Positions 4,632 through 39,361 of a stretch of DNA of 52,525 nt are shown here, piece by piece. Below the pieces are notes generated by a model that did not search any database, had not been told where the DNA came from, and saw only the letters and a program-made list of their open reading frames with translations. How positions within the stretch are numbered: the first letter of the stretch is position 1; each line of letters begins with the position of its first letter. Origin of the DNA: Oscillospiraceae bacterium (GTDB taxonomy: Bacteria > Bacillota > Clostridia > Oscillospirales > Oscillospiraceae); NCBI GenBank assembly GCA_021205585.1, contig JAJPXI010000207.1, positions 1 to 52,525 on the forward strand, given 5' to 3'. The translations under genes and the position numbers were made by a program.

Positions 4632-5897
4632 GTGGTCGACGCACCTATGGGCGCTGGCAAAAGCCAGGCCGCTATCGAATACATCAACAACCTGCCGCCT
4701 GGTGAGCGAGTGGTCTACACCGCCATCTACAACGATGAGGCTGAACGAATCCAAAAGGGTTGCCCTGATGCGAAAATGTACTTTCCTGAGCATGAGGAAC
4801 ATTCGGGCAAGACGAAGTGGCCTTTGATCGAGCGAGCTATCAAAAGAGGTGAGAATGTTGCTTGTACACACCAAGCCCTCCCTTTCTTTAGTCCTGAGAC
4901 GCTGGATTTCGTGGCGTATGGGAATTATACCCTAATTATTGATGAATCTTACGACGTCTTGAGACCAATTACGGCGGCCGATCGAAAGGCGTTCTTCTTC
5001 CTGCTTGATCATGAATGTCTTAATGTTGATGAGGACACTGGCCTCGTGATGTTCCGCAGCGACTTTGAAGAAAAATCATCCGATGTACTCAAAAGTAATA
5101 TTGCAACCTTAATCTCTCACGGCAATATTTATTATGTTGACGGGGATCTCATCTTCTGGACTTTCCCCGTCGGTGTTCTGGACGCTTTCAGTCGCATTAT
5201 TGTTTTGAGCTATATGCTGGACGCTCAACCGATGTACTACTATCTCTTGCACAATAAATTCCAGATAAACAATTTTGGGGTTCACAAATTTGAGGATGGT
5301 CATTATGAGTTCTGCTCTCCCGAAGATGCTGACGGATTTCCTTTCAATGTCCGGGATAAAATTGAGATTCTTCAGCGAGAAAAACTGAACAGCATTGGGG
5401 ATGGCCGGACGGACTTGTCGGTTGGGTGGTGTACTCGAACCGTCAAGATTGACGATAAGAAAGGTGTCGCCCAGCTTGGACGCAATGTCTGGAATGTGTT
5501 TAAGCATATTTACAAGTGTAAACCAACGGATTTTGCTTGGACGTGTTTTTCGAGGTATCGTAGTAAGTTTAAGAAAAAGGGTATCATCACGCGGTATATC
5601 CCCTATAACCAGCGGGCCTCCAACAAATACTCCAATGCCCACTATCTGGCTTACGCCGTGAATGTTTTCAACCAGCCGAACTGCTACAATTATTTCAAAG
5701 CTCGCGGGCTGGAAATGGACATGGACCGCTGGGCGCTCTCTGTTATGATTCAATGGATCTGGCGCAGTGCCATCCGCAACGGCGAAAAGATCTACATATA
5801 CTTACCCAGCAAGCGAATGCGGGATCTCTTAGAGGACTGGATGGACTCCCTGGAAGACAACTCCCTTGAGGCAGGCGGTGAAGAAATTGCGGTGTGA
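4632..5897 (+). CDS. P-loop NTPase, SF2-helicase-like
   Basis: Walker A DAPMGAGKS, Walker B-like LIIDESYD, motif VI-like QWIWRSAIRNG. The track start is GTG 4632, but the frame is open upstream and AGGAGG (4571-4576) sits 7 nt before an in-frame CTG at 4584, so the true start may be 4584. Confidence 0.7.
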   Translation: MVDAPMGAGKSQAAIEYINNLPPGERVVYTAIYNDEAERIQKGCPDAKMYFPEHEEHSGKTKWPLIERAIKRGENVACTHQALPFFSPETLDFVAYGNYTLIIDESYDVLRPITAADRKAFFFLLDHECLNVDEDTGLVMFRSDFEEKSSDVLKSNIATLISHGNIYYVDGDLIFWTFPVGVLDAFSRIIVLSYMLDAQPMYYYLLHNKFQINNFGVHKFEDGHYEFCSPEDADGFPFNVRDKIEILQREKLNSIGDGRTDLSVGWCTRTVKIDDKKGVAQLGRNVWNVFKHIYKCKPTDFAWTCFSRYRSKFKKKGIITRYIPYNQRASNKYSNAHYLAYAVNVFNQPNCYNYFKARGLEMDMDRWALSVMIQWIWRSAIRNGEKIYIYLPSKRMRDLLEDWMDSLEDNSLEAGGEEIAV

Positions 5898-8881: not shown

Positions 8882-10330
8882 ATGGACGCCTGCGCTATTG
8901 AGTTAAAGCGAGAGATCCGGCAGATCCGCAGGGAGCCGAACAGCATCCAGAGCAAACGCCGTATCCGGCGGCTGTATGCCGAGCTGGACAACGTGCAGTA
9001 CAAGCCGGACTACCTGTGCGTGGTGATGGACCGGCCAAGCGACTACCGGCGGGCGGTAAAAGGTTTTTCGGTCAACGGTATCCGGTACAAGCGTCTGCTT
9101 GGTACGGCTGGCGGCATTAAGAACAGCACCATCGTTTTTGTCAGCGACCGGTTGGTGGACGAGCTTCGTCGGCGGATTGACGACGGGCGGGACATGGCTC
9201 AGGCGTTCGTCCCGGCGAAACTGGAAGCGTATAAAGCTCTGACGTGCAGTGCCTCTACCCCGGTGTCCGCACCTAACGGCGTTCTGGTTGTGAACGACTG
9301 CGAGACCAGCTTTGTGTCCGAGGTCATGTATCTGACCGACGAGGGCGACGGCGAACCGGCTATGGAATACCGGGACGCCCAGGAGATTACGCTGGATGCG
9401 TCGGACGGCTGCGGGATGATTCATCCCTCCCTCGCCCAGAGGTGGAGCGACGAGCTTGGGCTTGGCTATTTGGCCAGCGGGCTGAACACCAGGATGGCCT
9501 GGGAGAAGGGCGTTGTCTTCACCTTCGACTTTGTGGACTTCGCCGAGCGGGTGGCCGGGACGTATCTAGTCAAGGACGCTTGGGGCGATGAGGTGGATGT
9601 GCGAAATGTGGACTTGGTGCTGACCACATCCATGGTCAAGCTGTGGGACAGTTATGAGAGCTGCCAGGATTATCTGGAGAAGTCTTACGCAAACGGCTAT
9701 ACATTCGGGATCACCAAGGTCTGCCCGGAGGAGCTGGAGAATGAGCGGACGCTGAACTACCAGTTCATCCAGCCGTTCTCGCTTTACGACGACGATATTG
9801 AGGAGCTGATCGCCCCGACGATGAACGAGGTTAAGGATGTGCTCGGCGGAGACTGGCGCAAGACTGTGCTGTTTCTAAAAGGCTCCGGTCTGAAAGAAGA
9901 GCGGGCTGCCAGGTTCGAGGACGACATCGCCAAGGCGATTATGATCAACCCACAGATGGTGGACGACCCGTATGTCCAGAACGCGGTGTACCAGGCGATT
10001 AAGAAGCGGATCGACGAGGCGAAGATCGGTGTGCTGAAAGTCCACGGCAACTACTCCATAGTCTCCGGCGATTTGTATGCTCTGTGCCAGAGTATGTTCG
10101 GGCTGGAGGTCACTGGTCTGCTGGGAGCTGGTGAGGTATATAACCGATACTGGCTGGACTGCAAGGCAGAAAACCTTGTTTGCTTTCGAGCGCCCATGAG
10201 CTGTCCAAATAATATCCGGCTGGTGCATCCGTCGGCCAGCGATGAGGCCGCCTACTGGTTCCGTTATATGCGGACTTGCACTGTGTTCAATGGGTGGGAC
10301 ACGGCGATGGTGGCATTAAATGGGTTGGAT
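8882..10330 (+). CDS. Two-barrel (DPBB) DxDGD polymerase candidate, YonO / RdRP-like, exon 1
   Basis: Track ORF 8882..10333 ends ...CFRAPMSCPNNIRLVHPS...TAMVALNGLD, then TAA. The frame is open upstream to 8705 with no ATG/GTG/TTG, so the N-terminus is uncertain (see findings). Confidence 0.65.
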
Positions 10331-10628
10331 TAAATATCTATAGTCCCCCGCGTGGGTAACTGCGCGGTGAAAATTCGGTGAACCTGTAAATGCAGGGTGT
10401 GCGCACTGCGGTGCGTGCTAACGGTGAAACTCTCAGCTGAGACAACACCGTGCCAAGCCTTTGCGGAAACGCATTGGAAGGTGTAACGACTACAGCATAC
10501 GGCCTAAACGAGAGCATGGTTATGAAGCTGGTACTGCGCCGGTGAAACTCCGGCGCGGGAAGTGCCGAGCGCCCAGACTGCTGGGTGATGAGATAGTCTA
10601 TTCCCCATGGTGACATGGGGTAGTAAAG
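10331..10628 (+). mobile_element. Group I intron (298 nt, no ORF) inside the polymerase catalytic motif
   Basis: P1 is ggaT (10327-10330) with Gtcc (10343-10346), giving U.G at the splice site. P10 is tatg (10629-10632) with tata (10339-10342), directly adjacent. An R-like element ggtgtaacgactaca (10480-10494), an S-like gagatagtc (10590-10598) and several GNRA-type capped hairpins are present. The last nucleotide is G. The first intron codon is an in-frame TAA. Confidence 0.8.
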
Positions 10629-11738
10629 TATGACGGAGACCTGGTCATGCTGACCGACAACGAAGTCCTGGTGCGGAACTTCGAGCCGCTTCCCGCCCTA
10701 ATGTGCGTCCAGCGCAAGGCGGAAAAGAAAGTGCCGACGGAAGAAGACTTTGTAGAATCCAATCTTGCCAGCTTTGGCAACGAGATCGGACAGACGACAA
10801 ACCGGATCACAGCGATGTATGAGATCCAGTCCCGGTGCAGGAAGGGCGACCGGGAGTATGATGAGCTGGCGTACCGTATTCAATGCGGGCAGTTGTACCA
10901 GCAGAATTCAATCGACAAGGCGAAAGGGATTATCTGTAAGCCAATGCCGAAGACCTGGTACGACCGGCACGCGGTCAATGATATTGAAGACGGCAACACG
11001 CGGGAGTTCTACCGCAGCATTGTGGCGGACAAAAAGCCGTACTTCATGCGGTACGTCTACCCCGCCCTAATGAAGCAGTACAACACTTACATAAAGAACA
11101 CGGGCCGCAACGCCCAGCGGGAATTTCAGACGACCGTTGAGGAAATGAAGAGCGTTCCATACGGCGAGCTGAAGGATGACCAGAAGAAATTTCTCCATCG
11201 GTATGACTACGGGATGCCGGTCGGAGTTGGCGACTGCGTCATGAATCGGATTTGCCGCCGGTTCGAGCGGGAGTTCGATGGCCATATCAAAAAGCACAAT
11301 GCCTCCTCTCTATTCGACTACCGGATTCTGAAATCCGGCTGTGAGTATAGCGAGGATCAATTCCGCGAGATCAGACGGCTATACGACGAGTACGTCGCCC
11401 AGCTCAAGCGGTACAAGATATTCTCGGCCTACGAGAAGGTCGACGGAGATATTTCCTCCGCTGAGTTCCAGGTTATGAACGAGGCGTTCCGTGCCGCCTG
11501 CGTCACCACCTGTCCGAACGAGGCGACCCTGTGCGATACTCTGCTGGACTTGTGTTATACACGCAACGCGACCAAGCGGTTTGTATGGGAGATGTGTGGC
11601 TCGTCAATCATACAGAATTTACTAAATCGAAATGACAGGATGATCTCCGTGCCTGTCCGGTGCGAGGACGGAGAATTTACATACGCCGGAGAGCGGTATG
11701 CTGTGCGGCAGACAAAGCTGGACGAGGTGAGCGGTTGA
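10629..11738 (+). CDS. Two-barrel DxDGD polymerase candidate, exon 2
   Basis: It begins tat gac gga gac (YDGD) in the frame of track ORF 10647..11738. Ligation gives ...ALNGLD-YDGD-LVMLTDNE. Confidence 0.7.
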   Translation, partial: YDGDLVMLTDNEVLVRNFEPLPALMCVQRKAEKKVPTEEDFVESNLASFGNEIGQTTNRITAMYEIQSRCRKGDREYDELAYRIQCGQLYQQNSIDKAKGIICKPMPKTWYDRHAVNDIEDGNTREFYRSIVADKKPYFMRYVYPALMKQYNTYIKNTGRNAQREFQTTVEEMKSVPYGELKDDQKKFLHRYDYGMPVGVGDCVMNRICRRFEREFDGHIKKHNASSLFDYRILKSGCEYSEDQFREIRRLYDEYVAQLKRYKIFSAYEKVDGDISSAEFQVMNEAFRAACVTTCPNEATLCDTLLDLCYTRNATKRFVWEMCGSSIIQNLLNRNDRMISVPVRCEDGEFTYAGERYAVRQTKLDEVSG

Positions 11739-26818: not shown

Positions 26819-27544
26819 ATGTCAACATTAAAACTGCTCTACGAAACTTCGTATCCAATCAATGACTTTATCCACGTCAAGATTCCGACAGTTGGAGAAG
26901 TTTTAGACCATGAGGACGATTACTATAGCCTTGTCTATCTTTTGACGGCTATGCCGATTGACTTGATGGTCATGCTGGACGATGCCGGGGTAGATTGGAC
27001 AACCGTGAATGAGTATGACGTTTTTCTTATGATGTTCACGGCGATGCAGGCGCAGGATACAAGTTTGGTTTTCGATAATCTGGATTTATCCAAATTTGCA
27101 ATGGCTGTCAATCAGCAGAACGGAAACGTGGTGCTGAGGGACGAGGCCAACAATATAACAATCGACCGTGCAATTCACGGTCAGGTAGCAAGGGTTTTGC
27201 GGCGCATCCACAATTTGAAGCAAGACCGCCGTAAGCCCGCCAACAAAGAAGCACGGGACTATATGCTTGAGCGGGCGCGAATTAAAGCTAAACGCAATCG
27301 TAACCGCAAACAGGAGTCCGAATTAGAGACCTTGATTGTTGCCATGGTCAACACACCGGAGTTTAAATACGACTTCGATGGCGTAAGAAACATGACTATC
27401 TTTCAGTTTAATGAGAGTGTGCAACAGGTGATTAAAAAGGTCGAGTACAACAACCGCATGATCGGCGTATACGCCGGGACTGTGAGTACAAAAAATCTGA
27501 GCCAGGACGATTTGAACTGGCTCACCCATAAACAGCGAAGGTGA
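26819..27544 (+). CDS. Hypothetical protein with a basic central region
   Basis: ATG lies 1 nt after the previous stop. Confidence 0.55.
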   Translation: MSTLKLLYETSYPINDFIHVKIPTVGEVLDHEDDYYSLVYLLTAMPIDLMVMLDDAGVDWTTVNEYDVFLMMFTAMQAQDTSLVFDNLDLSKFAMAVNQQNGNVVLRDEANNITIDRAIHGQVARVLRRIHNLKQDRRKPANKEARDYMLERARIKAKRNRNRKQESELETLIVAMVNTPEFKYDFDGVRNMTIFQFNESVQQVIKKVEYNNRMIGVYAGTVSTKNLSQDDLNWLTHKQRR

Positions 27545-27591
27545 TCTTCGCTTCAAAAATTTTTGAATTAGGAGGAATTAGGAGGTTTATT

Positions 27592-28389
27592 ATGAACATT
27601 GATTTCGCTGATATTGCGATTACCAGCGTAGAGACTGTTACTGCGTTCGATCTCTCTACCGGCGCGTGGAAGTTCACTCTGGACGAGCTGAGCAGTGTTT
27701 CTATTTCTCAGTCCGAAGAGACGACTGACATCACTGGTAAGCAGGGGCGCAAGCTTGCTAAGATCAAGAAGAACAAGACCGTCACCATCAGCGGTGAGAA
27801 CGGCTTGATTTCTGGTGGCCTGCTTGAGATGCAGACTGGTTCTGACCTGGAGAACACTACCACCGAGGTTATGTGGACCGACTATCTGACTGTGTCCAGC
27901 AACGCTGCCACAACCAGCTATACCGCCGTGGGTACGACCGGAGCTGAGATTATCAACCTGTATGTGAAGAACGCCGACGGCACTCTGGGGGACGAGCTGA
28001 CCCAGGGTTCTACCGCCACGAGCGGCGTGTTCACCTACACCCCGTCCAGCAAGAAGCTGGCCTTTAGCGGCGTGAGTGACGACACCGAGATCGTTGTGTT
28101 CTATAAGCGTCAGATTACCGCCGACGTTTTGGAGAACTACAGTGATACTTATTCCGGTACTTGTACTCTGTACATTGACGCTCTGGCCGAGGACACTTGT
28201 AACAACGTGTATCGCATCCAGTTCTATTTCCCCAGAGCCGACTTCAGCGGTGAGTTCTCCCTGGATATGGGCGACAGCCAGACTGTCCACTCTTTCGAGG
28301 TTGAGGCTCTGTCTGGTGGCTGTGGCGTGTCCAGCGGCCTGTACTTCACCTATACCATCTTTGGTGTTAATACCGAGGATGCGACCTAA
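27592..28389 (+). CDS. Major tail (tube) protein
   Basis: ATG 27592 follows a duplicated AGGAGG. 265 aa, Thr/Ser/Gly-rich, upstream of the chaperone-position and tape-measure genes. Confidence 0.7.
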   Translation: MNIDFADIAITSVETVTAFDLSTGAWKFTLDELSSVSISQSEETTDITGKQGRKLAKIKKNKTVTISGENGLISGGLLEMQTGSDLENTTTEVMWTDYLTVSSNAATTSYTAVGTTGAEIINLYVKNADGTLGDELTQGSTATSGVFTYTPSSKKLAFSGVSDDTEIVVFYKRQITADVLENYSDTYSGTCTLYIDALAEDTCNNVYRIQFYFPRADFSGEFSLDMGDSQTVHSFEVEALSGGCGVSSGLYFTYTIFGVNTEDAT

Positions 28390-28404
28390 TCAATAAAGGA
28401 CTAA

Positions 28405-28447
28405 GAGAGTCCGCCGCCAATTAACGCGGCGGCTCTCCGCTTTGTAA
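28405..28447 (+). terminator. Stem-loop terminator after the major tail gene
   Basis: gagag(t)ccgccgc / gcggcggctctc, a 12-bp stem with one bulge, followed by ccgctttgt. Confidence 0.5.
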
Positions 28448-28472
28448 GCCTATGGTTGGAGGTGAGGGAGAC

Positions 28473-28838
28473 ATGGCAAAAGGAATGCTGAAATGCAAAG
28501 TGTGCGGCAAGATGTATGAAGCGTGCCACACTGAGCACAAAGCGGACGGTATATTCCGCTGGAACGAAGTAGCGTGTTGCCCAGAGCATGGCGCTATCTA
28601 TTTGGAGCAGATTCTGGCGTCTCGCGCCGGTACTACGGAAACTACCGAGGAGACCGTTTCCACTGCGGAAACATCTCAGGTGGATACTGCCGAGACCGCA
28701 GAGGTGATCGTTGAGGAAGTAACCGAGGCAGTGGTCGAGGAGACCGCCGAGGTGACGACTCCCACAAAGAAGACTCGCTCCGCCAAATCTTCTGCGAAAG
28801 CCTCCTCGGCAGAGGAGACAGAGACCGCAGATGAATAA
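28473..28838 (+). CDS. Small zinc-finger protein with a Thr/Glu/Ala-rich tail
   Basis: ATG 28473 follows GGAGGTGAGGGAG. Contains CKVCGKMYEACH...CCPEHG. Confidence 0.6.
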   Translation: MAKGMLKCKVCGKMYEACHTEHKADGIFRWNEVACCPEHGAIYLEQILASRAGTTETTEETVSTAETSQVDTAETAEVIVEEVTEAVVEETAEVTTPTKKTRSAKSSAKASSAEETETADE

Positions 28839-28896
28839 GCTATGGGCCGTATCTCGCTTTGAGGTGCGGCCCATTTTGCATATTGAAGGAGGGAAC

Positions 28897-29349
28897 ATGG
28901 GCAGGACAAAGTACAATGTGGGCAAGGATACCAGCAAGCGCACCTATAACGGGATCGTCTTTGATTCTGAATTGGAGATGAAGTATTACAGGGATGTGGT
29001 TCTGCCCGGTGTGGAGTCCGGTGAGATTGTAGCCTATGAGTTGCAAAAGGCATACGAGCTGCAACCTAAGTTTGAGTATAACGGGAAGCGTGTGCGCCCG
29101 ATTACATATGTAGCAGATTTTTACATTGTTTACAACGGCGGGAAAGAAGCCGTGATCGACACAAAGGGATATACCACTCCCAATGCACAGCTGAAGCGGA
29201 AGATGTTTTGGTACCACTACCCAGAGCTGGACTATCAATGGATTGGGTATTCCAAAATCGACGGCGGGTTTGTGCCGTATGAGTACATCAAAAAACAGCG
29301 TGCGATTCGGAAGAGGAATAAAGCACGCCAAGAGTTAAAGGAGAGTTAA
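28897..29349 (+). CDS. DUF1064-type (PD-(D/E)XK-like) nuclease-fold protein
   Basis: ATG 28897 follows GAAGGAGGG. TYNGIVFDSELEMKYYRDV...ITYVADFYIVY...VIDTKG matches the DUF1064 pattern as I recall it. Confidence 0.65.
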   Translation: MGRTKYNVGKDTSKRTYNGIVFDSELEMKYYRDVVLPGVESGEIVAYELQKAYELQPKFEYNGKRVRPITYVADFYIVYNGGKEAVIDTKGYTTPNAQLKRKMFWYHYPELDYQWIGYSKIDGGFVPYEYIKKQRAIRKRNKARQELKES

Positions 29350-29352
29350 CTT

Positions 29353-29952
29353 ATGGAAAATGAAAATGTGACAGCCCAGGAATTGCTGGAAGTTATTAAG
29401 GATACCGAGCAGACGACCACCATCGACTATTGCGGGATGAAGATTCAGGTAAAAAACTACCTCTTCCCTGCCGATATGTTCGGGTTTGTGAGCGATGTAG
29501 TGTCTCTGTGTTTTGACGAGGACACCGGGGCGTATCACCCGGATGTCAAAGACTTTGCGATCCGGTGCGAGACCATTGAGAAATATACCGGAATTAAACT
29601 ACCGGACGACATGGACGAGCGGTGCAGGCTGGCGTATGAGTCGAAACTTGTGGACGCGATTGAGGACGTCGCAGATTTTAAACAGATGAACGCAATCCAT
29701 ATTGCGATTAACAGCGCATTGCAACACAAGGCAAGCCAGAGCATCGAGCAGCTGAATTTGCGGATGGGCGCTATCGCCTCCGCGTTTGAGGAGCTGGAGA
29801 ATAAGCTGACCGATATGTTCAGCGGCGTGGATACCGGCGATCTGGCGAAGCTGACGCAGGTTGTGGCGAACGGCGGATTTGACGAGGGCCGTCTTGTGGA
29901 CGAGTTTGTAAAACGCAGGAATGATACCAAAGGTGGTACCGTTGAAGGTTGA
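29353..29952 (+). CDS. Putative tail assembly chaperone (by position)
   Basis: AAGGAG SD; an acidic 199-aa protein between the tail tube and tape-measure genes. Confidence 0.5.
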   Translation: MENENVTAQELLEVIKDTEQTTTIDYCGMKIQVKNYLFPADMFGFVSDVVSLCFDEDTGAYHPDVKDFAIRCETIEKYTGIKLPDDMDERCRLAYESKLVDAIEDVADFKQMNAIHIAINSALQHKASQSIEQLNLRMGAIASAFEELENKLTDMFSGVDTGDLAKLTQVVANGGFDEGRLVDEFVKRRNDTKGGTVEG

Positions 29953-29953
29953 T

Positions 29954-30493
29954 ATGGACGCCATCCTCAAGAAGGCGCAAACATATCTGGATAGCTCAGA
30001 GGGACAGAAACAAATCCAGCAGGCGGCTCGCGGCGCGATTATGGGGAATGTTACCTTTCAAACGGCCAGTGGGCATGGATACAGTATTCGGCAGGCGGCC
30101 AATAAATTCATTGAGACGCTGAGAGGTTCTATCGCCGCCTCTGGTCTCAGCGCCGGTGTCGCCTCTGCTCTGAACGAAATTGAGTATGACGCACCGGTTG
30201 ACAATGGAGACGGTACATTTTCCATCAACATACATTTTGTTGGCAATCTAAAGCGCAAGTCACTGTACGACGAGGAATATCCAGAGGGTGTGGACAATCT
30301 TGCTGCACTGTACAACAACGGCGTAGATCACATGATGAGTCCAGTATACGGCACCTGGCACGGTGAGCTTGCACATAGCCGGACGGTTATCCCAGGTTTG
30401 CATTTTATCGAACAGGCAAAGCAATCCTTTATGGCGGCGGATGCCGCCAAGTACGGAGTGATTGATATTCAGCTCGGCGACGATTACAAGTAG
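29954..30493 (+). CDS. Hypothetical tail-module protein
   Basis: ATG 29954 lies 1 nt after the previous TGA and has a GAAGG SD. Track ORF 29921..30493 is in the same frame. Confidence 0.5.
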   Translation: MDAILKKAQTYLDSSEGQKQIQQAARGAIMGNVTFQTASGHGYSIRQAANKFIETLRGSIAASGLSAGVASALNEIEYDAPVDNGDGTFSINIHFVGNLKRKSLYDEEYPEGVDNLAALYNNGVDHMMSPVYGTWHGELAHSRTVIPGLHFIEQAKQSFMAADAAKYGVIDIQLGDDYK

Positions 30494-30527
30494 TCCCGGG
30501 CGCTTTCTTTTATAGGGAGGTGACATT

Positions 30528-32020
30528 TTGGCAACTGATTCTTCGCAAATACAACTGGTTGTGGGCGTAGACCAGAGTGCGAGTTTAAAGAATTTTAAAG
30601 ATGGAGTCAATGCTCTAATTGCGGAGGTAAACAAAGACCCGCCCAAAATCAAGGTGGAAATCGACACTGGTTCTGCCAAGTCAATCAAATCACAAATTGA
30701 TTCTGCGCTGAAAACTGCCAGCTCCGGTGGCACCTCTCTTGGGACGCAGTTTAAGTCGGCGACGACGGAAGTCCAGAAGCTGGTATCCACGCTCGGCAGC
30801 CTGGATGATAAGAGTTTGGGGCAGCTAACGTCCACACTGAGCAGCTTTGAGAATATATCCGCCGATGGAGCGAAGCAACTTGTCGCAGCGCTAAGCAATG
30901 TTAGTGGTAAAGTGACTGATGTCACGGCCAAGGTGAGAACGCTTGCAGATGGAGAGCGGCAGCTTGACTCCGTCACAGTGAAGGCTGTGGATGATTTTGG
31001 CAACATAGTCACACAGACCTCTAAGTGGAACGCAAAAACAAAGGAAGTATCCAGCACATTAGAGACCGTACACGCGAAAATGGATGCGACCGCGAAGGCT
31101 CAGGAGACGGCGACTGCGGCTACGAGCAAAAATACGAATACGACTCAGCAGAATGTAGCAGTTGAGAAAAGTTATATCAGCGTGCTATCCAATTGCAATT
31201 CCTTTTTAGAGCGGTATACGGCGGCAAAGAACAGTCACAATTCAAGTAGTCGCGCTGCGTACACAACTGTCGAGCAGGAGAAATCTGCTATGGAGGCTGC
31301 GTACAGCGCATATAAAACCGGCGCTCTTTCTTTGGAAGCGTTCAAGAATGCGATCAATAACACATCGGTCAAGATAAGAGAAAATACAGTTTTACTAAAG
31401 GCGAATGGTGACGCAACGAAAACTCTGGTCGGGCGCGTATCTGATTTAGCTGCCAAATTTAGCTCGTGGTTCTCCGCATATACAATTGTAATCAATATGA
31501 TGAAAGCCATGAAGTCTTTGGCGTCTGCCTCTGTCGAGATCGAAGACGCAATGGCTCAGATCCAGATTGTCACCGGGGCGACGGACTCACAGTTGACCAA
31601 GTTTCTGTCCGAGGCTATCGACCTCGCCAAAGAGTTGGGACAGTCTGTGACCGATGTGGCCTCCGCGATCGAGACGTTCTCCCGTTTGGGCTACAGTTTC
31701 GATGAAGCGTCTGAGCTGGCTGAGTACGCCACGATTCTGGCAAACGTAGCCGATACGGATGTTGACACGGCTACGACAGGTCTGACTTCAATTATCAAAG
31801 GCTACAGTCTGGAGGCTTCTGACGCGGAGCATATCGCCGATGTGCTTGTCACAGTCGGTCAGGAGTACGCCATCTCTGCCGAAGAATTGATGGAAGCATT
31901 TGAGCGCGGCGGCGCTGCCTTAGCTGCAACTGGCGCGACAGTGGAACAGAGTGCTGGTTTGTTTGCGGCGACCAATGCTGCGTTGCAGGATGCTTCGACG
32001 ACTGGTACGATGTGGAAGAC
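30528..32020 (+). CDS. Tail tape-measure protein, exon 1
   Basis: TTG start after GGGAGGTGA. The sequence runs into the conserved TMP core, ending ...AATNAALQDASTTGTMWK(T). The track ORF continues only 7 more codons to TAG 32040. Confidence 0.8.
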
Positions 32021-32530
32021 AAACTACTGTCTTTGTGTATAGAAATATGCGCATAGAACATATTTAATTGCAGGTAACGCCTAAAGCCTTACACCACAAT
32101 AGTCGGGAAACCAGATTATGACGGGGCGAAAGCGGAAACAACGTAAGGATGGCATATGGCCAAAAGCCTAAGTGCCAAGTTTACTAATTTGTATAAATTA
32201 GAAATGGCTGTTCGTGCAGCGAAGCACCCTAACGTATCCCACAGACCATGTGGTACTTAGCCGAGGGTGAACGTTCAACGACTATCCCCCTGTCGGGGCG
32301 TAGAAATATCCGTCTTGGATTATCAAATAAGGGTGGAAATCCCGAATATCTGCGCCAATAGGAGTACGGCACAATCGCAAAGGTGTTGGTGAGAACCCAT
32401 TAAACGGAAAAGGTATGCTTGCTGCTTGTGAAAGCGTGAGTAAGAAATAGTCTCCTCTCCATGTGAAAGCATGGGTATTATGAAATTGATTCGTAGTAGA
32501 TGCGTGTTGCGAACGCATTTAAGATATATG
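32021..32530 (+). mobile_element. Group I intron 1a in the tape-measure gene (about 510 nt, no credible ORF)
   Basis: P1 is gaagac (32015-32020) with gtcttt (32029-32034). P10 is agta (32531-32534) with tact (32025-32028), adjacent. P-like aattgcagg at 32066, R-like cgttcaacgactatc at 32271-32285, S-like aagaaatagtc at 32442-32452. A P9-like hairpin ccatg-tgaaag-catgg and a hairpin atgcgt-gttgcga-acgcat follow, and the intron ends ...gatatatG. The 5' boundary has C rather than U at -1. Confidence 0.65.
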
Positions 32531-32552
32531 AGTAAGTGCAAGGATTCGGGGT
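32531..32552 (+). CDS. Tape-measure micro-exon (22 nt, completes the Thr codon then encodes VSARIRG)
   Basis: a|gta agt gca agg att cgg ggt supplies exactly the x-S-x-R-x-R-G segment missing between GTMWKT (exon 1) and ATTELDELGE (next exon). A TGA at 32529-32531 lies immediately upstream in the same frame. Confidence 0.6.
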
Positions 32553-32882
32553 CAACATAAATGTGCCCAGCAAACAGAAATGTTTGTACAGCCTCCTTGT
32601 AAAACAAAGGCTGCTCAATAACTATATAAGTCAAAACGCTGTGGGAAGCGCAAGACTTAGGAAAGACTGTGAATACAGAATCCTCAGAGACTGCGGGGTG
32701 TATGTGGCAACACATATGCTGAAGTTATTCTCCCTGCCTATTTTGGCGAGAGTGATATACAGTCCGATCTCACGATATAATCCCACATAATATGAAACGT
32801 GAGAGCTGGCCGGAAACGACCAGCCGCCATGCGAAATACATGGTCAGTAGTCGTGCTAATTCCGACGAAAGTAACAGTTATG
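32553..32882 (+). mobile_element. Group I-like intron 1b in the tape-measure gene (about 330 nt); 3' boundary uncertain
   Basis: P1 is gggT (32549-32552) with Gccc (32565-32568), giving U.G. A GAAA-capped hairpin caaaca-gaaa-tgtttg is present. P7-like pairing is gactgt (32665-32670) with acagtc (32759-32764), inside the S-like gatatacagtcc. 3' hairpins are ctcacg/cgtgag, gctgg..ccagc and ccatg..catgg. In-frame G-terminated 3' sites exist at 32831, 32864, 32867 and 32882. Protein consensus favours 32882 (RIRG|ATTELDE). Confidence 0.5.
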
Positions 32883-35800
32883 GCCACTACAGAATTAGAC
32901 GAGCTTGGCGAGTCCTCCGAGGATTGTGCTGACGGCATTTCTAAATATCGGGAAGAAGTCAAGGCTCTAACCGGCGTTGACATCATGATTGACGACAACA
33001 CCTACAGAGATGTCTATGACATTTTCGTTGATATTGCGAATGTTTGGAATGACCTGAGTGATACAGCACAGGCTCGTGTGTCCGAAATTTTGGGCGGCAC
33101 AAGGCAGCTCTCTGGTGTGTCCTCTACTATTACAAATATTGCGGACGCTATAGGCGCATATGAGAGCGCAATGGATTCCGCCGGGGCCGCAACTGAGGCC
33201 AACGACATCTACATGGAGACGACCACCGCTCATATTGCACAGCTGAACGCGGCGACGCAGGAGCTTGGCAGTGACCTGTTCAATCAAGATATGTTCAAGA
33301 CCTTTTTTGACGGTGCGACAAAAGCTATAGAAGCTATTGATGTTCTTGTTAGCCACATGGGAATGATCGGTACCGGAGGACTTGCCGGGCTTGCCGCAGG
33401 TTTCAAAAGTATATTTTCATCCGCCAGCAATTTTTCTAAACAATTGAGTGACGTTTCAAGCATAGCTAATAGCATCGGGACTGCTACTACATGGGCAGCT
33501 AATTATGCAGATGCTATCGAAGGATGCAACGACGCGACAAAGAACTTGCTGTTGTCAAGCGGCGGGTTGAGTACGCAACAGCAGACGCTTGTTCAAAATA
33601 TTTTAAAGGCGCGGACGGGCATATCCAACCTTACGGCCGCAGAGGTAATGGACGAGCTTACAAAGCAGGGGCTAATCACCGCCGAAGAGACAGAAACGGT
33701 GATGAAAGAACTCAACATTACTAAAACCCAAAAGCTAACAGAGTCTCAGCTTACTGCGGCGTATGCTTCCGGAACTCTAACAGAATCGCAGTACAATACC
33801 GCGATGGCGTTAGTCGCCGAGTCAACGGCGGCGGCCAAAGCCACAACTTCGACGACATCTTTTTCGACCGCGATTAAAGGCGCAATGGCGACTAACCCCG
33901 TCGGCTGGATTATGTTGATTGTCAGCACTTTGGTATCGCTATACAGTATTGTTAAAAATAATACGGATTTATTCAGTACCACGTCTGAAAGGTTAGAGAA
34001 GCTACAGTCCGATCTGGAAGAGCTGGAGGAGACCATTGACTCCGCCGCATCCTCTTTTAAAGAATTGCGGGAGACGTTAGAACTCGATTCTGACGCAACT
34101 GTCATTGACGAATTCGCGGAGCTTGCCAAAGGTGTTAATCAGTTTGGTGAAAATGTTGACCTAACAGAAGATGAGTATGAGAGATTTACGGAACTGCAAA
34201 GCACACTTGCCGAGTTATTCCCGTCCATAGACAACGGGTTAAACTCAAATGGAGAGCAGATGCTGGCACTGTCCTACTCTTCCGATACATTGGCCGAGTC
34301 GTTATATGCGTTGGCGGATGCGGAGCTTGCGGCGTATCAGCAAGAAATAGCTGATACCATGCCAGACCTTGTAAAAGACATCGCAAAAGAGACTAAGATA
34401 TACCAGAACCAATTGTCCGATTTGGAAGATCAGTATACCGTCTTGACCGCACTAAGTAGCGGGTATGCCAATTATTCAGACGTTGGTCGAATGATGCCAT
34501 ATCAAGATGTTGCTGACTTATTAGAATCGTATGGATTGTCGGCCTCTCAAGATATTTATGGGATGTCTGTTGATCTGAATACAGACGAGGCTCTGGCTGC
34601 ATATGAAAGTGCTTTGGCTACGCTCGAGCAGGAAATAAAGCAGGTAAACGACGAGGTAGCAGATGCTTGGACTGATTTAAACCCAGTTATTACATCGTGG
34701 CTTTCTACCGATTATACCTATAATGAGTTAAGTGACGAGATGCAGGATCTTCTCGCCTCTCTGATTGGAAATATTGATTTTTCGGAGCTTGGCTATGGCA
34801 CAGCAGATGACATCCAATCCTATATCAAGACCAATTTCTTAGTGCCAATTTATAACGCAAGTGATGAAGTACAGGAGGCTTGGAGCGATCTAATAGCGGT
34901 CGACACCTCTGATACCTCTTATTCCAAATTATACAACACAATTCACGAGTATGCTAATGTTGTAGCAGATGGCATTGGTCAAGACGTAGAGGATATTGTA
35001 TCTTCTCTGTACGGCGATACACTGGAAACGTACAATGATAAGATCATCGCTCTGACGGAGGAGTTCCAGGAGAGTTCGTTCTATGCGACCTCTGCGGCGG
35101 AGGATGCCGCTGAGAGTATGACCAGAGTATATAGCTTTTGGCTTAACAATCTGGAGGTTGGGGACCTCGACCTGGTGTATACTCTGTCCCTGCAAGAGGA
35201 CACCAGTGGCTGGACGTTACGGGATTGGCAGGATAATCTTGAGAAACTTCGTGAGTACACTGACGCGACCAACTTCACCATCGACATCGACGCGGAGACC
35301 GAGGGGCTTGAGGCTGTCAACACCGCTCTGGCTGAGACCGCATCGGCCACTGGTCTAACATCAGATTCTATTGAAACGCTCAAAGAGCGGTATCAGGACT
35401 TGGAGGACTTTGACGCAGACGCTCTGTTCGAGAACACGTCCTATGGTGTGCGGCTGAATACAACTGAGCTGAAGAAGCTGGAAGATGAGTATGAGGCCGT
35501 TATCAAAACCGGCTTTGATGAGAAGCTCGAAGAGCTGGCGGATGAGTATAACGAGGCCAAGAGCGAATTGTCCAGCTATCTGGGAGATGTGGACGCCTAC
35601 AACGAAAAGCTGTCCGAGCTGGACGCAATCGAGGCTCAGATTGAAGAGACTGAGATTCTCGCCTCCCAGTATGGAGCGCTGACCTCTGCGTATAACGAGT
35701 GGCAGAACGCCATGAATACCGACAACCAGCGGGATACCTATGAGTCCATCGGTGCAAGCTATGAGGATATGCAGGACATCCTGAACGCCGGGTGGTACAA

Positions 35801-37045
35801 TGATGATTCTTTACAGTCATACCTCGATCTGTTGCTCGGCGAGGAAAATCGCACTGGTGATGCCCTGAAGGATTTTGCTAAGCTCAGTGAGACCATCGCT
35901 GGGACAACGCACTCCATCATGGATTACTGGGCGTATGACGAGGACGGCAATCTGCTGTCCAACGGTCTGGTGGATTTTCTGGAAGATGTGCGCCAAGTCA
36001 TGGGCGAGGACTATGTTTGGCTTGACGAAGAAGGCAGTTATGTATTCGATCTGACGGGCGATAAGATACAGGAAGTCGCTGACCGGTTCGGTATGGGCAC
36101 GGAAGCCATTGAATATTTCATCACAGCCTTGGGGGATGTCAGCGGGACGGTTGCTCTTGAGGATATTAGTGATACGCTTGACCTAATTACGACCAGAGCT
36201 GAGGATGCGATTGCGACACTACAGGGCATTGAAGGGCTGACGGACTTTGAGTTCGATCTGAACACTTCGGACGTGGACGAACTCCAAGATGACCTGGCGG
36301 AAGCACAGCGGATTTACGACTCTATGTTGGATGAAAACGGCATTCTCAATTTGGATATAGAGGGTGCGGACGATGCATATGCTTTACCTTACGCTATCAA
36401 TCTTCAGATTCAGCAGATCGAGCAACCGGCCATTATGACCGTTGACACGTCGTCGTTCAAAGAGGGGTACGAGATTGTTGCGGACGCCGCCGCGAAGATT
36501 ATAGAATATGGCGAATTGGTAAGTCAGCTAAAGCTCTACGAATCTCTTGGTAAGGATACAACCGATATAGTCACGGATCTACAGGAGGTTTCCGCAGAGC
36601 TTTCTAATATCTCTAAAGACGCATATATCTCTCTCGGTCTTGATACAGAAACCATAGAGGAGATAAAGAGCATCACTTCTGAATGTTCTGTAGAGCTTGA
36701 TCAGGATAGCGTTGATGCCGTGATGGATATACTTGGCTCCATAGACGTTGACGATCTACCGCTTGAGTGCGATACCGATGCAGTCGAGGAAGCGTTTGAA
36801 TATTATGAGGAATATCAGTTTGGCGACAAAACTATCGTTGTGACGGTATCCGGCGGGGCGCTCAAAGACCTGCGGGTGATACAAAGCGTTGTAGACGATC
36901 TGTCCGGAGCAAGCATTGCGATAGGCACAGCATCGAATGCAGACGGTACTGCCCACGCCACTGGTACGGCCAAAGCCAGTGGGGATTGGAGCGTCGGGTC
37001 GAGCGGAGAGTCTCTGGGAGGAGAACTCGGACAAGAACTCGTGGT
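32883..37045 (+). CDS. Tail tape-measure protein, exon 3 (main body)
   Basis: In the frame of track ORF 32799..37067. ATTELDELGESSEDCADGISKYREEVKALTGVDIMIDDNTY...ILGGTRQ continues the TMP core, followed by long helical repeats. It ends ...GGELGQELV(V). Confidence 0.8.
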
Positions 37046-37369
37046 TTTGCGAAGCCACGCCGCTTAGTGATAAGCGGTTCATAATTTATTGAATTGCTGG
37101 AACACCCTTAGAGCCTTACCACCAAAACGGAGTAGCGAATAGCTACAAACGGCAATGGTTTGAAAACGGTAGGGATTGGGCAATCAGCAGCCAAGCCGCG
37201 AATAGCGGAAGGTTCAACGACTATCCCGCAAGGGAGTAGGGCCGCAAGCGATTGGCAGCTCGAAGCAGTAAATTACCTATTATATAGGTAAAAGATATAG
37301 TCTGAACTCATGTGAGAACATGAGGGGCGATGCCCTGTCCGGTGTAGCGAACCGGGCAAAACATAATTG
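37046..37369 (+). mobile_element. Group I intron 2 in the tape-measure gene (324 nt, ORF-less)
   Basis: P1 is cgtggT (37040-37045) with Gccacg (37054-37059). P10 is cgcaa (37371-37375) with ttgcg (37047-37051). P2 is cgctta-gtga-taagcg. P ttgaattgctgg at 37089-37100, Q gggcaatcagcagccaagc at 37178-37196, R ggttcaacgactatc at 37210-37224, S aaaagatatagtc at 37290-37302. It ends ...ataattG. The boundary is good to within a few nt. Confidence 0.85.
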
Positions 37370-37959
37370 ACGCAACGGCAGATGGTTCACCATCGGGGAC
37401 GACGCGGCAGAGTTCTTCCACCACGAACCAAATGACATTATATTCAACGCAGACCAGACTGAGCAGATCTTCAAGTACGGTAAGATAGTAAGTGGTCGCA
37501 AGAGAGGAACATCTTTCCTTACTGGCACTGCGTTTACTGGCGGCTCCGGCAGCGGAGTCAGCCCCTCTACGACCGCCACCGCCTCCACTGCCAAGACCAG
37601 CTCTTCTTCGAGCAGTTCATCCAGCAGTTCTTCTGACTCCGACGACGAGAATACAGAAGAGGTCATCGACTGGATTGAGATCGCAATCGACCGGATTGAG
37701 CGGGCGATCGACAATCTGGCTACCATAGCGGAGAGCGCGTATCACACGCTTGCCGAGCGGCTGAGCGCGACGAAGGACGAAATCTCCACAATCACAGAGG
37801 AGATTCAAGTTCAGCAGGCGGGCTATGACCGGTATATGCAAGAGGCCAACTCTGTCGGGTTGAGCAGTGACCTTGCGGCTAAGGTCATGGACGGCACCAT
37901 CGACATTGAGACGCTGGATGAGGATACCGCAGATTTAGTAAGCCAATTTCAAGAATGGT
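37370..37959 (+). CDS. Tail tape-measure protein, exon 4 (absent from the ORF track because it has no start codon)
   Basis: An open frame from 37371 encodes RNGRWFTIGDDAAEFFHHEPNDIIFNADQTEQIFKYG...poly-Ser...EEVIDWIEIAIDRIERAIDNL...DLVSQFQEW. A TGA lies immediately upstream at 37368-37370. Confidence 0.8.
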
Positions 37960-39361
37960 ATATTTTCATGCCGCTGTACCTGGAACTGGTACGGCTTTTC
38001 TACTGAATTGCTGGGACGCCCCAAAGGTGACTAAGCCAAAACGTGAGAATGAAAGATGTCTGAGCGTGACGGCGGCGAAAGCAGAAAAAATTAGGCACAT
38101 AGGATATGGCGAAAGCCTAAGTCCTTTACAACGGGCAATCAGCAGCCAAGCTCCGAATAGGAGAAGGTTCACAGACTATCGCTGAAATGCGAGTAGGGCC
38201 GCAAGCGATTGGCGGCTCGAAGTGGTAGATTACTTATAATTGCAATTTAGAAGCCAATGATAGGAGGTGAAATATGTTTGATGAAAATCAATTAGTTATG
38301 GTACGTTGGAATAATACAAATAAGGAATGGTACGAGTTGATGGGTTACAAATATACAAAACGATATGACCCCTTTTATGTAAAAGCAAAGCATCTTTCCT
38401 TACATTCTTCGGCGCAGATAGTTGTTGTGTGTGATTATTGTGGAAACGAATATAAAACACAGTATGCCTTAATTACAAACGGACGTCTACTTCTTAATAA
38501 GGATGCGTGCTCTAAGTGCGCGCCCACGAAGGCCAACGAGCTTAGATGGGCGAGAATGTCAAGAAAAAAGATGGGTGAAGCTCGGCGTATTTGTGATGAG
38601 TGCGGATATGAACTAATCTCTTCTGAAGATGATTATGCCGGAGCCACGGCCGCCATTCAATTTCGATGCCCGATACACGGTATCCAGACTATGAATCTTG
38701 ACAATCTTTTGAGAGGGCATAGGTGCAGAGATTGTGGCTATGATAGCGTTAGGGTAGCCTTAAAGCACAGTGGCGATTATGTCAAACAGGAAATCGAGAA
38801 GGTAAATGGCAATATACTACTAAACCCAGAAGATTATAAAGGGGCGTTTATCAACAATCTGCGTATTAGATGTAGGTGCGGAAATGTATTTACAACGGCG
38901 TTTTCCAGCTATACTAAGGCAGGGATAAATCGTTGTCATACATGTTCGTGCAAAGAGAGCAGTGGGGAATTAAAAATCAGGGAGTTTTTGGAGTCAAAAA
39001 ATATCACTTTCGTTCAGGAGAAAAGATTCAAAGATTGTTGTGATAAAAAGCCACTCCCGTTTGATTTTTATTTGCCAGACTATAACACTATTATTGAGTT
39101 TGATGGTCAGCATCATTATATGCCGGTACACGGAGAAGATCGCTACCTCGTGACAATAGCTCACGACCAAATAAAGAACCGATATTGTTGTGCCCACGAC
39201 ATTCATCTATTGCGTATTCCATATTGGGAAGGTAAACGTATGGAGGAAATTATCGCAAACGATCTAAAAATTGCAATATGAGTAAAAGATATAGTCGAAT
39301 CTCATGGGAAACCCATGAGGGTAAAAGCCCGTCGGGTGTAGCGCCCCGGCGAAATAAAATG
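37960..39361 (+). mobile_element. Group I intron 3 in the tape-measure gene (1402 nt) carrying a homing-endonuclease ORF
   Basis: P1 is tggT (37956-37959) with Gccg (37970-37973). P10 is atgaaaa (39362-39368) with ttttcat (37963-37969), 7 bp and contiguous with P1. The core is nearly identical to intron 2: P at 38003-38015, Q at 38133-38151, R ggttcacagactatc at 38166-38180, S aaaagatatagtc at 39284-39296. The last nucleotide is G at 39361. Confidence 0.9.
38274..39281 (+). CDS. Intron-encoded homing endonuclease candidate: zinc-ribbon repeats plus a C-terminal PD-(D/E)XK / Vsr-EDxHD-like nuclease
   Basis: ATG follows TAGGAGGTGA inside intron 3. It has three CxxC...CxxC-type modules, then GELKIREFLESKNITFVQEKRF...LPFDFYLPDYNTIIEFDGQHHY...DQIKNRYC...HLLRIPYWE. 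AT content is higher than in the flanks. Confidence 0.75.
   Translation: MFDENQLVMVRWNNTNKEWYELMGYKYTKRYDPFYVKAKHLSLHSSAQIVVVCDYCGNEYKTQYALITNGRLLLNKDACSKCAPTKANELRWARMSRKKMGEARRICDECGYELISSEDDYAGATAAIQFRCPIHGIQTMNLDNLLRGHRCRDCGYDSVRVALKHSGDYVKQEIEKVNGNILLNPEDYKGAFINNLRIRCRCGNVFTTAFSSYTKAGINRCHTCSCKESSGELKIREFLESKNITFVQEKRFKDCCDKKPLPFDFYLPDYNTIIEFDGQHHYMPVHGEDRYLVTIAHDQIKNRYCCAHDIHLLRIPYWEGKRMEEIIANDLKIAI

Follow-up and report, generated by a model that had tools for sequence, protein, structure and literature searches.

The 52,525-nucleotide (nt) stretch of contig JAJPXI010000207.1 from an Oscillospiraceae bacterium (assembly GCA_021205585.1, positions 1 to 52,525 of the forward strand), hereafter the window, carries a tape measure protein (TMP) gene of an uncultivated gut phage. 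We propose, at a probability of about 0.88, that this gene contains two separate group I introns only 22 nt apart, that the stretch between them is a micro-exon and that the mature TMP mRNA contains it. The proposal rests on the DNA sequence, namely on the agreement between the 22 nt and the protein sequence of uninterrupted homologues, on the guide sequences and conserved helices of both introns, and on other phages in which one or the other intron stands by itself at the identical site.

Layout of the tape measure gene

The TMP, which belongs to the TP901 family, is interrupted by a gap of 862 nt without a credible open reading frame (ORF). The ORF on its upstream side (30528-32042) ends seven codons past ...TTGTMWKT, and its residues 365-497 correspond to positions 2-139 of the 201 positions of the profile PF10145 (PhageMin_Tail); the next long ORF runs to 37066 and includes ATTELDELGE, from 32883. 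With a putative TTG at 30528 taken as the start of exon 1, the predicted layout is as follows.

30528-32020, + strand: TMP exon 1, ending GGT ACG ATG TGG AAG AC and aligning with uninterrupted homologues up to WKT
32021-32530, + strand: predicted intron 1, 510 nt, at 'site b', after AAGAC
32531-32552, + strand: predicted micro-exon, A GTA AGT GCA AGG ATT CGG GGT, the third base of a Thr codon followed by VSARIRG
32553-32882, + strand: predicted intron 2, 330 nt, at 'site c', after ...CGG GGT
32883-37045 (3' end approximate), + strand: TMP exon 3, beginning gcc act aca gaa (ATTELDELGE) and aligning with homologues from ATTEL

The final 'ac' of exon 1 (32019-32020) forms the first two bases of the Thr codon, and the frame is kept on joining (2 + 22 = 24 nt). 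Joined in frame, 30528-32020, 32531-32552 and 32883 onward read TTGTMWKTVSARIRGATTELDELGE; the predicted spliced protein runs GTMWKT-VSARIRG-ATTELDELGE, and the predicted peptides that span its junctions are TVSAR, IR and GATTELDELGESSEDCADGISK. The gene with both introns looks functional, since the flanking frames are open over approximately 500 and 1390 codons and the predicted spliced product matches PF10145 in a single stretch.

Two further group I introns lie in the same gene, at 37036-37324 (Rfam, 77.5 bits) and at 37940 to about 39357 (42.3 bits). The latter holds an ORF of 336 amino acids (38271-39278) with weak CapR/zinc-finger matches only. The later exons are placed at approximately 37371-37945 and from 39358 to beyond 41499, all junctions being approximate. 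With these two the gene would have at least four introns and at least five exons.

The micro-exon as coding sequence

The case for the micro-exon is made by close homologues and not by family profiles. At 66-67% identity there are hundreds of proteins without the interruption, and where the predicted junction would lie they have TTGTMWKTVSARIRGATTELEEMGEE (uninterrupted homologues overall are 43-67% identical), and all residues of KTVSARIRGATTEL are invariant in an alignment of seven sequences. KTVSARIRGAT runs uninterrupted across the position of the junction in the proteins P0001..., P0122-P0125 and P0139 and at the intron-less loci L001, L002 and L008; the same residues are invariant in the more distant relatives P0122-P0125, P0139 and P0153. 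The number of occurrences of VSARIRG expected by chance in the gap, all three frames considered, is 5.4e-6. The micro-exon differs from the intron-less allele L001 at eight of 21 nt and at none of the seven amino acids, and such a synonymous-only difference is the signature of a translated segment under purifying selection.

A preliminary description of the window, made from its letters alone, had assigned the missing VSARIRG to a 22-nt exon on the strength of the motif G-T-x-[LW]-K-T-x-S-x-R-x-R-G, which leads into an acidic stretch similar to TELEE. Close homologues show this motif and read the same across the junction, and none of those examined lacks the segment. The limits that it had given, GTMWKT and ATTELDELGE on the exon side and 'gatatatG' ending at G32530 on the intron side, are likewise present in the sequence, as is every other sequence detail that it quoted, with an offset of one base for 'gactgt'.

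The predicted spliced product aligns with PF10145 in one stretch (92.8 bits, profile positions 2-198 of 201) and with TIGR01760 over positions 7-329 of 349 (109.5 bits). These profiles do not discriminate between a product with the micro-exon and one without it, the respective scores being 92.8 vs 92.7 bits for PF10145 and 109.5 vs 111.5 bits for TIGR01760. A splice variant ending at U32033, as implied by the Rfam alignment (...KTNYCL), gave lower Pfam and TIGRFAM scores and was rejected.

Intron 1

That the gap holds two intron cores and not one had also been put forward in the preliminary description, and it agrees with the Rfam match and covariation of intron 1, with the covariation of intron 2 and with the finding of each alone elsewhere. 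The elements assigned to intron 1 are the following.

32025-32034, + strand: guide sequence, 5'-UACU/GUCUUU, UACUGUCUUU
32280-32284 and 32448-32452, + strand: P7, GACUA with UAGUC, from the Rfam alignment
32500-32518, + strand: terminal hairpin, AUGCGU-GUUGCGA-ACGCAU

The Rfam model RF00028 (Intron_gpI) matches intron 1 with 36.3 bits over 32024-32475 (E-value 2e-7 when 1.1 kb were searched and 1e-5 for the window as a whole). The pairing first suggested for P7, gactat (32280-32285) with atagtc (32447-32452), is the one that the Rfam alignment uses. Scanning with the core pattern TAAAGCCTTACACCACAATAG yielded 24 viral loci, and compensatory changes were seen in 49 of the 98 pairs predicted by RNAalifold from a ten-member alignment of the family; the folding z-score of intron 1 against shuffled sequence was -3.1. 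In a scan of the genome collection, the core was present in two metagenome-assembled genomes only.

The guide accounts for both ends of the intron. Its GUCUUU pairs at all six positions with GAAGAC of exon 1 (P1), and its UACU forms four contiguous pairs with AGUA of the micro-exon (32531-32534; P10), while no contiguous pairing is found with the start of exon 3. In relatives, P10 tracks the downstream exon of each (AGUGAG/UUUUACU in L003, AAUUUC/GAAAUU in L090 and AUUAAG/CUUUUAU in L086). A 12-nt tail follows the terminal hairpin and closes with G32530. By eye, a (G/U)UUGCGA loop on covarying stems precedes the 3' splice site in intron 1, L003, L090 and L086, and the base before the 3' exon is G, as expected of an omega-G, in all four site-b introns with a defined 3' end.

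The 5' splice site is placed after C32020 on account of the coding constraint, under which no U is possible at this position, and of the terminal-G rule; a one-base A/A ambiguity is resolved by the terminal-G rule alone. The same arrangement, AAGAC before the site and A after it, is found in every site-b relative (L083, L084, L086, L090 and L094), including L003, in which an intron 1 homologue with an intron ORF occupies the same site.

Intron 2

Since the Rfam match of intron 2 is insignificant, its family was collected by DNA pattern scans. The group-I-derived GIR1 model gave 15.5 bits (E 0.22), and BLAST matched the core in the Thomasclavelia phage TR-TP1. The principal elements are listed below.

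32565-32568, + strand: guide, GCCC, pairing with GGGU of the micro-exon (32549-32552)
32618-32623 and 32723-32728, + strand: P3, AUAACU with AGUUAU, compensatory changes in three of six pairs
32689-32693 and 32760-32764, + strand: P7, GACUG with CAGUC, invariant in all eight members, with partial Rfam support

The structure was evaluated on an alignment of eight members (A3) from which the ORF insertions in P6 had been removed, counting P3, P4, P5, P6, P7, the extra hairpin, P9, P9.1 and P9.2, with the P3/P7 pseudoknot. Of its cells, 97.0% are paired, and 26 of the 51 pairs have changed on both sides; none of 500 shuffles reached the observed level, and shifted registers were 23-40% paired. 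The folding z-score against shuffled sequence was -4.1. P3 takes the form CAAACU/AGUUUG in TR-TP1 and GUAGC/GCUAC in L090, and a J8/7-like GAUAUA stands directly before the CAGUC at 32760-32764. Intron 2 looks like a subgroup IA intron with an extra hairpin between P7 and P3'. For the second P7 it had been proposed that gactgt pairs with acagtc (32759-32764). The latter strand was retained, whereas gactgt, which lies at 32666-32671, one base from where it had been placed, belongs to a P6 hairpin that is not conserved in relatives and does not serve as the 5' strand.

The splice site shows the canonical wobble, U32552·G32565, and G32882 precedes exon 3. The guide UGUGCCC and the exon end GGGGT are common to L013-16, L028, L051, L104 and L107. 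A looser pattern, GGGGTMAAN{2,6}TGTGCCCA, returned 67 loci in viral contigs, all but eight of them chance matches. At the Arg-Gly codons (window 32547-32552), alleles with a site-c intron have [AC]GG GGT, giving GGGU for P1, and the intron-less alleles L001, L002 and L008 (around 3540) have AGA GG[CT]. This codon contrast suggests co-adaptation of exon and intron, or co-conversion.

Occupancy of the sites in other phages

Members of both families were found at and around the two sites in loci from other metagenomic phages.

Site c only, intron 2 family: L013-L016, L028, L051, L104, L105, L107, L108 and L109
Site b only, intron 1 family: L084 and L086
Site b together with a different intron 13 nt past site c: L003, with a 35-nt exon
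Intron 2 family after ...SVG, 14 nt upstream of a site-b intron: L081, L090 and L099, with a 14-nt exon, ACAGCCTTTAAGAC

At the loci occupied at site c only, the upstream exon is unbroken (...W[KRQN]TVSAR[LI]RG) and the downstream exon, where it is in the locus, starts [SAT]xTEL; that of L109 is cut by a contig junction. Most of these introns carry an ORF, and that of L104 does not. The next exons of the two loci occupied at site b only begin A ATT TCA ATG CGT ATC AGA GGT GCG and A TTA AGT GCT CGC ATA CGT GGT GCA. In L003, the 35-nt micro-exon (4984-5018) encodes VSARIRGAKTE and follows the ORF-bearing homologue of intron 1; after ...ACAGAGT comes a third kind of group I intron (5019-5283, Rfam 27.3 bits). 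The 14-nt exon of L090 (1531-1544) encodes TAFK plus 2 nt and is preceded by an ORF-bearing intron; L084, from the same metagenome as L090, is devoid of the upstream intron. As each intron of the window is found alone at the same site elsewhere, introns 1 and 2 are independent of one another.

At least four insertion sites thus lie within approximately 60 nt of the motif, and the window has the b+c combination. It is an even bet, in our view, that the motif G-T-x-W-K-T-V-S-A-R-I-R-G-A-x-T-E-L is an intron hot spot, in which at least two families retarget their guides, exons of 14-35 nt are left between neighbours and one family splices after C with a C-G pair. No further b+c carrier was found by pattern scans of viral contigs, in the genome collection or among exon 1 homologues; the site-c pattern had zero matches in the genome collection. 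Deposited phages include no close relative of this phage, and among exon 1 homologues the next in rank is 46% identical.

Introns of the intron 1 family were also found after LAG(K)/LGGK-type motifs (L080, L085, L088, L091, L092, L096 and L100). Separately, the 'TMP' proteins P0123, P0124, P0125, P0128 and P0153 have short unrelated tails, such as ICREKKK after ...VWDN and RDKMYSLRN after ...KNIG. There are probably several more intron sites in the TMP genes of this clade.

With regard to mobility, all + strand ORFs in the two introns of the window are of at most 84 amino acids, and the two that were scanned (34 and 84 amino acids) had no Pfam match. The ORFs in relatives encode 314-492 amino acids and are located in P9 (L003) or P6 (L015 and L090); relatives of intron 2 carry an ORF insertion of 1.7 kb in the P6 hairpin. 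These ORFs, putative homing endonucleases, gave weak zinc-finger-type Pfam matches only and no confident family. Since neither intron 1 nor intron 2 has an ORF, both are probably immobile derivatives of ORF-bearing relatives.

Proposed splicing pathway and alternative explanations

Each intron would fold on its own within the pre-mRNA. The guide of intron 1 (32025-32034) would form P1 with the end of exon 1 and P10 with the four bases that open the micro-exon; the guide of intron 2 (32565-32568) would pair with the last four bases of the micro-exon, the U·G wobble falling where cleavage takes place. By two separate reactions, each initiated by guanosine, the micro-exon would be joined to exon 1 on one side and to exon 3 on the other. 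Splicing would thereby restore ...TTGTMWKT-VSARIRG-ATTELDELGE..., and one continuous TMP would be translated. As to origin, the two introns belong to two different mobile intron families, which occur singly at the same sites elsewhere, often with an ORF inside the intron, and also use neighbouring sites in the motif. Given that the families are found singly at these sites, the window would represent the double-occupancy state of an intron hot spot.

Several observations weigh against this reading. The U·G pair at the 5' splice site is near-universal in group I introns; it is absent from intron 1, which has C32020-G32029 instead, and Tetrahymena ribozyme mutants with C-G in place of U·G cleave less efficiently. 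Searching the literature for natural C-G exceptions at the splice site returned nothing useful. The Rfam score of intron 1 is below the gathering score of RF00028 (36.3 vs 50 bits). The two halves of the gap, for which separate Rfam runs had been advised, behaved differently: the first is significant, and the second gives a partial P4-P7 match of 9.2 bits with E 9.9. Taken alone, the latter result would mislead, because intron 2 is missed by Rfam. Intron 2 has a short P1 of 4 bp, and about 2 bp is all that its P10 forms with exon 3. The b+c arrangement is seen in one lineage only, since the database holds no close relative. Lastly, splicing of both introns in vivo, with its order and efficiency, is inferred from the DNA.

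It may be asked whether the gap is a single intron of about 862 nt, 32020 being joined to 32883 and the VSARIRG stretch being a chance match or a relic. Rfam does report one intron only in the gap, and the profile scores hold up when the seven residues are left out. Joining exon 1 directly to exon 3, however, would shift the frame, 22 not being divisible by 3, and translation across the resulting AC-GCC junction would meet a stop after about five codons. Moreover, VSARIRG is invariant among homologues, with a chance expectation of about 5e-6; the second half of the gap has a group I core that is supported by covariation and stands alone at the same site elsewhere; and the guide of intron 1 finds its partner at 32531-32534 and not from 32883 on. 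We regard a single intron as extremely improbable. Partial skipping of the micro-exon, from the 5' site of intron 1 to the 3' site of intron 2, would yield the same join as a truncated TMP isoform, either regulated or as a by-product. The very short exon would favour such an event, which we nevertheless judge unlikely, since the introns differ in family and in guide sequence, exon 3 does not match the P10 of intron 1 and the product is out of frame. Being out of frame, it cannot yield a functional TMP.

Alternatively, the gene may be decaying, one or both introns having ceased to splice and the TMP being made as separate polypeptides or not at all. The lack of ORFs in both introns, the poor Rfam scores and, for intron 1, a 5' splice site that follows a non-canonical C are what decay might leave. 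Against it stand the compensated substitutions in the helices, such as AUAACU/AGUUAU vs ACAACU/AGUUGU in P3, CGCU/AGCG in P5 and GCUGG/CCAGC in P9.1. In addition, the C at the splice site is common to every site-b intron, the ORF-bearing L003 included, the differences in the micro-exon are synonymous only, and the long downstream exons are intact. Decay is therefore, in our estimation, very unlikely, and two introns that flank a translated micro-exon remain the preferred reading.

Comparison with known systems

TMP genes of Bacillus cereus-group prophages contain IA-type group I introns, namely TMP-IVS1, IVS2 and IVS3a/b (Tourasse & Kolstø 2008, PMC2504315), and some of these prophages have two TMP introns. 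As in the present gene, several TMP sites are used, the introns are often ORF-less, changes in P1/P10 retarget related introns and different introns share a site. In the parts of PMC2504315 available to us, no strain is reported with both IVS1 and IVS2, and no micro-exon is described. The present case differs in that only 22 nt of a single motif separate two occupied sites and that, with the relatives, the number of sites within approximately 60 nt is at least four.

A gene of Staphylococcus phage Twort has three group I introns and shows exon skipping (cited in PMC3073962 and PMC11878797). It resembles the TMP gene of the window in that a single phage protein gene holds several self-splicing introns with short internal exons; the introns of Twort are alike, however, and those of the window belong to two different families. 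The Twort exons reportedly measure tens to about a hundred nt and would thus be longer than 22 nt. Micro-exons between organellar introns are known from mitochondrial cox1 (placozoan cox1, PMC5436844; fungal mitogenomes, PMC12308204). Like the micro-exon proposed here, they are very short, are missed by gene finders and are recognised through protein conservation, but they reside in organellar genomes and in another host gene. A literature search returned no micro-exon flanked by two group I introns in a phage or bacterium, and no account of this TMP hot spot.

A deposited member of the intron 2 family lies in the TMP of Thomasclavelia phage TR-TP1/TP2 (PQ571309/PQ571310), with 73.6% core identity. 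It shares P1 GGGU/GCCC with intron 2 and has an HNH-annotated ORF of its own in P6, but it occupies a different, non-homologous TMP site, after GAGGAGGGT. The corresponding locus L011 (PQ571309.1, 28535-30047) is annotated as three genes, 'tail length tape measure protein', 'HNH endonuclease' and 'hypothetical protein'. The sequence indicates that L011 is one TMP gene split by an intron of this family, with the endonuclease ORF in P6.

Other features of the window

A fifth group I intron (10342-10620; 44.3 bits, E 4e-8) lies between the ORFs 8882-10333 and 10647-11738, the former of which matches PF05183 (RdRP, the QDE-1/YonO-like RNA polymerase family); the intron appears to interrupt a gene for a phage RNA polymerase. 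The region of approximately 27000-30500 has matches, via L110, to YomU_Tube and DUF1064 and, weakly, to YomV_2nd, YomU_Tube and YomV_2nd being SPbeta-type tail proteins. The contig is otherwise known from one Logan assembly only (SRR15221350).

Significance

Earlier work had already described group I introns in TMP genes, as well as phage genes with multiple introns, and current understanding is not altered by the present gene. Its particular feature is that two unrelated ribozymes would share an exon of 22 nt, four bases being used for P10 and four for P1. Together with the relatives that have 14-nt and 35-nt exons, it makes the minimum length of an exon and the mutual dependence of neighbouring introns testable, and the family with a conserved C before its 5' splice site allows the U·G rule to be tested on a natural example. 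When genes are called from ORFs, this TMP is broken up into unrelated 'genes' and its seven invariant residues are lost, and the Thomasclavelia phage record, as well as the many 'TMP' proteins that end in read-through junk, point to a widespread annotation problem. Several mobile-intron families pack into the single stretch of a structural gene that is most conserved. Should the hot spot be real, phage annotation pipelines would systematically split such genes, and nature would offer, in the family that splices after C, an exception to a rule of group I catalysis that is among the most conserved.

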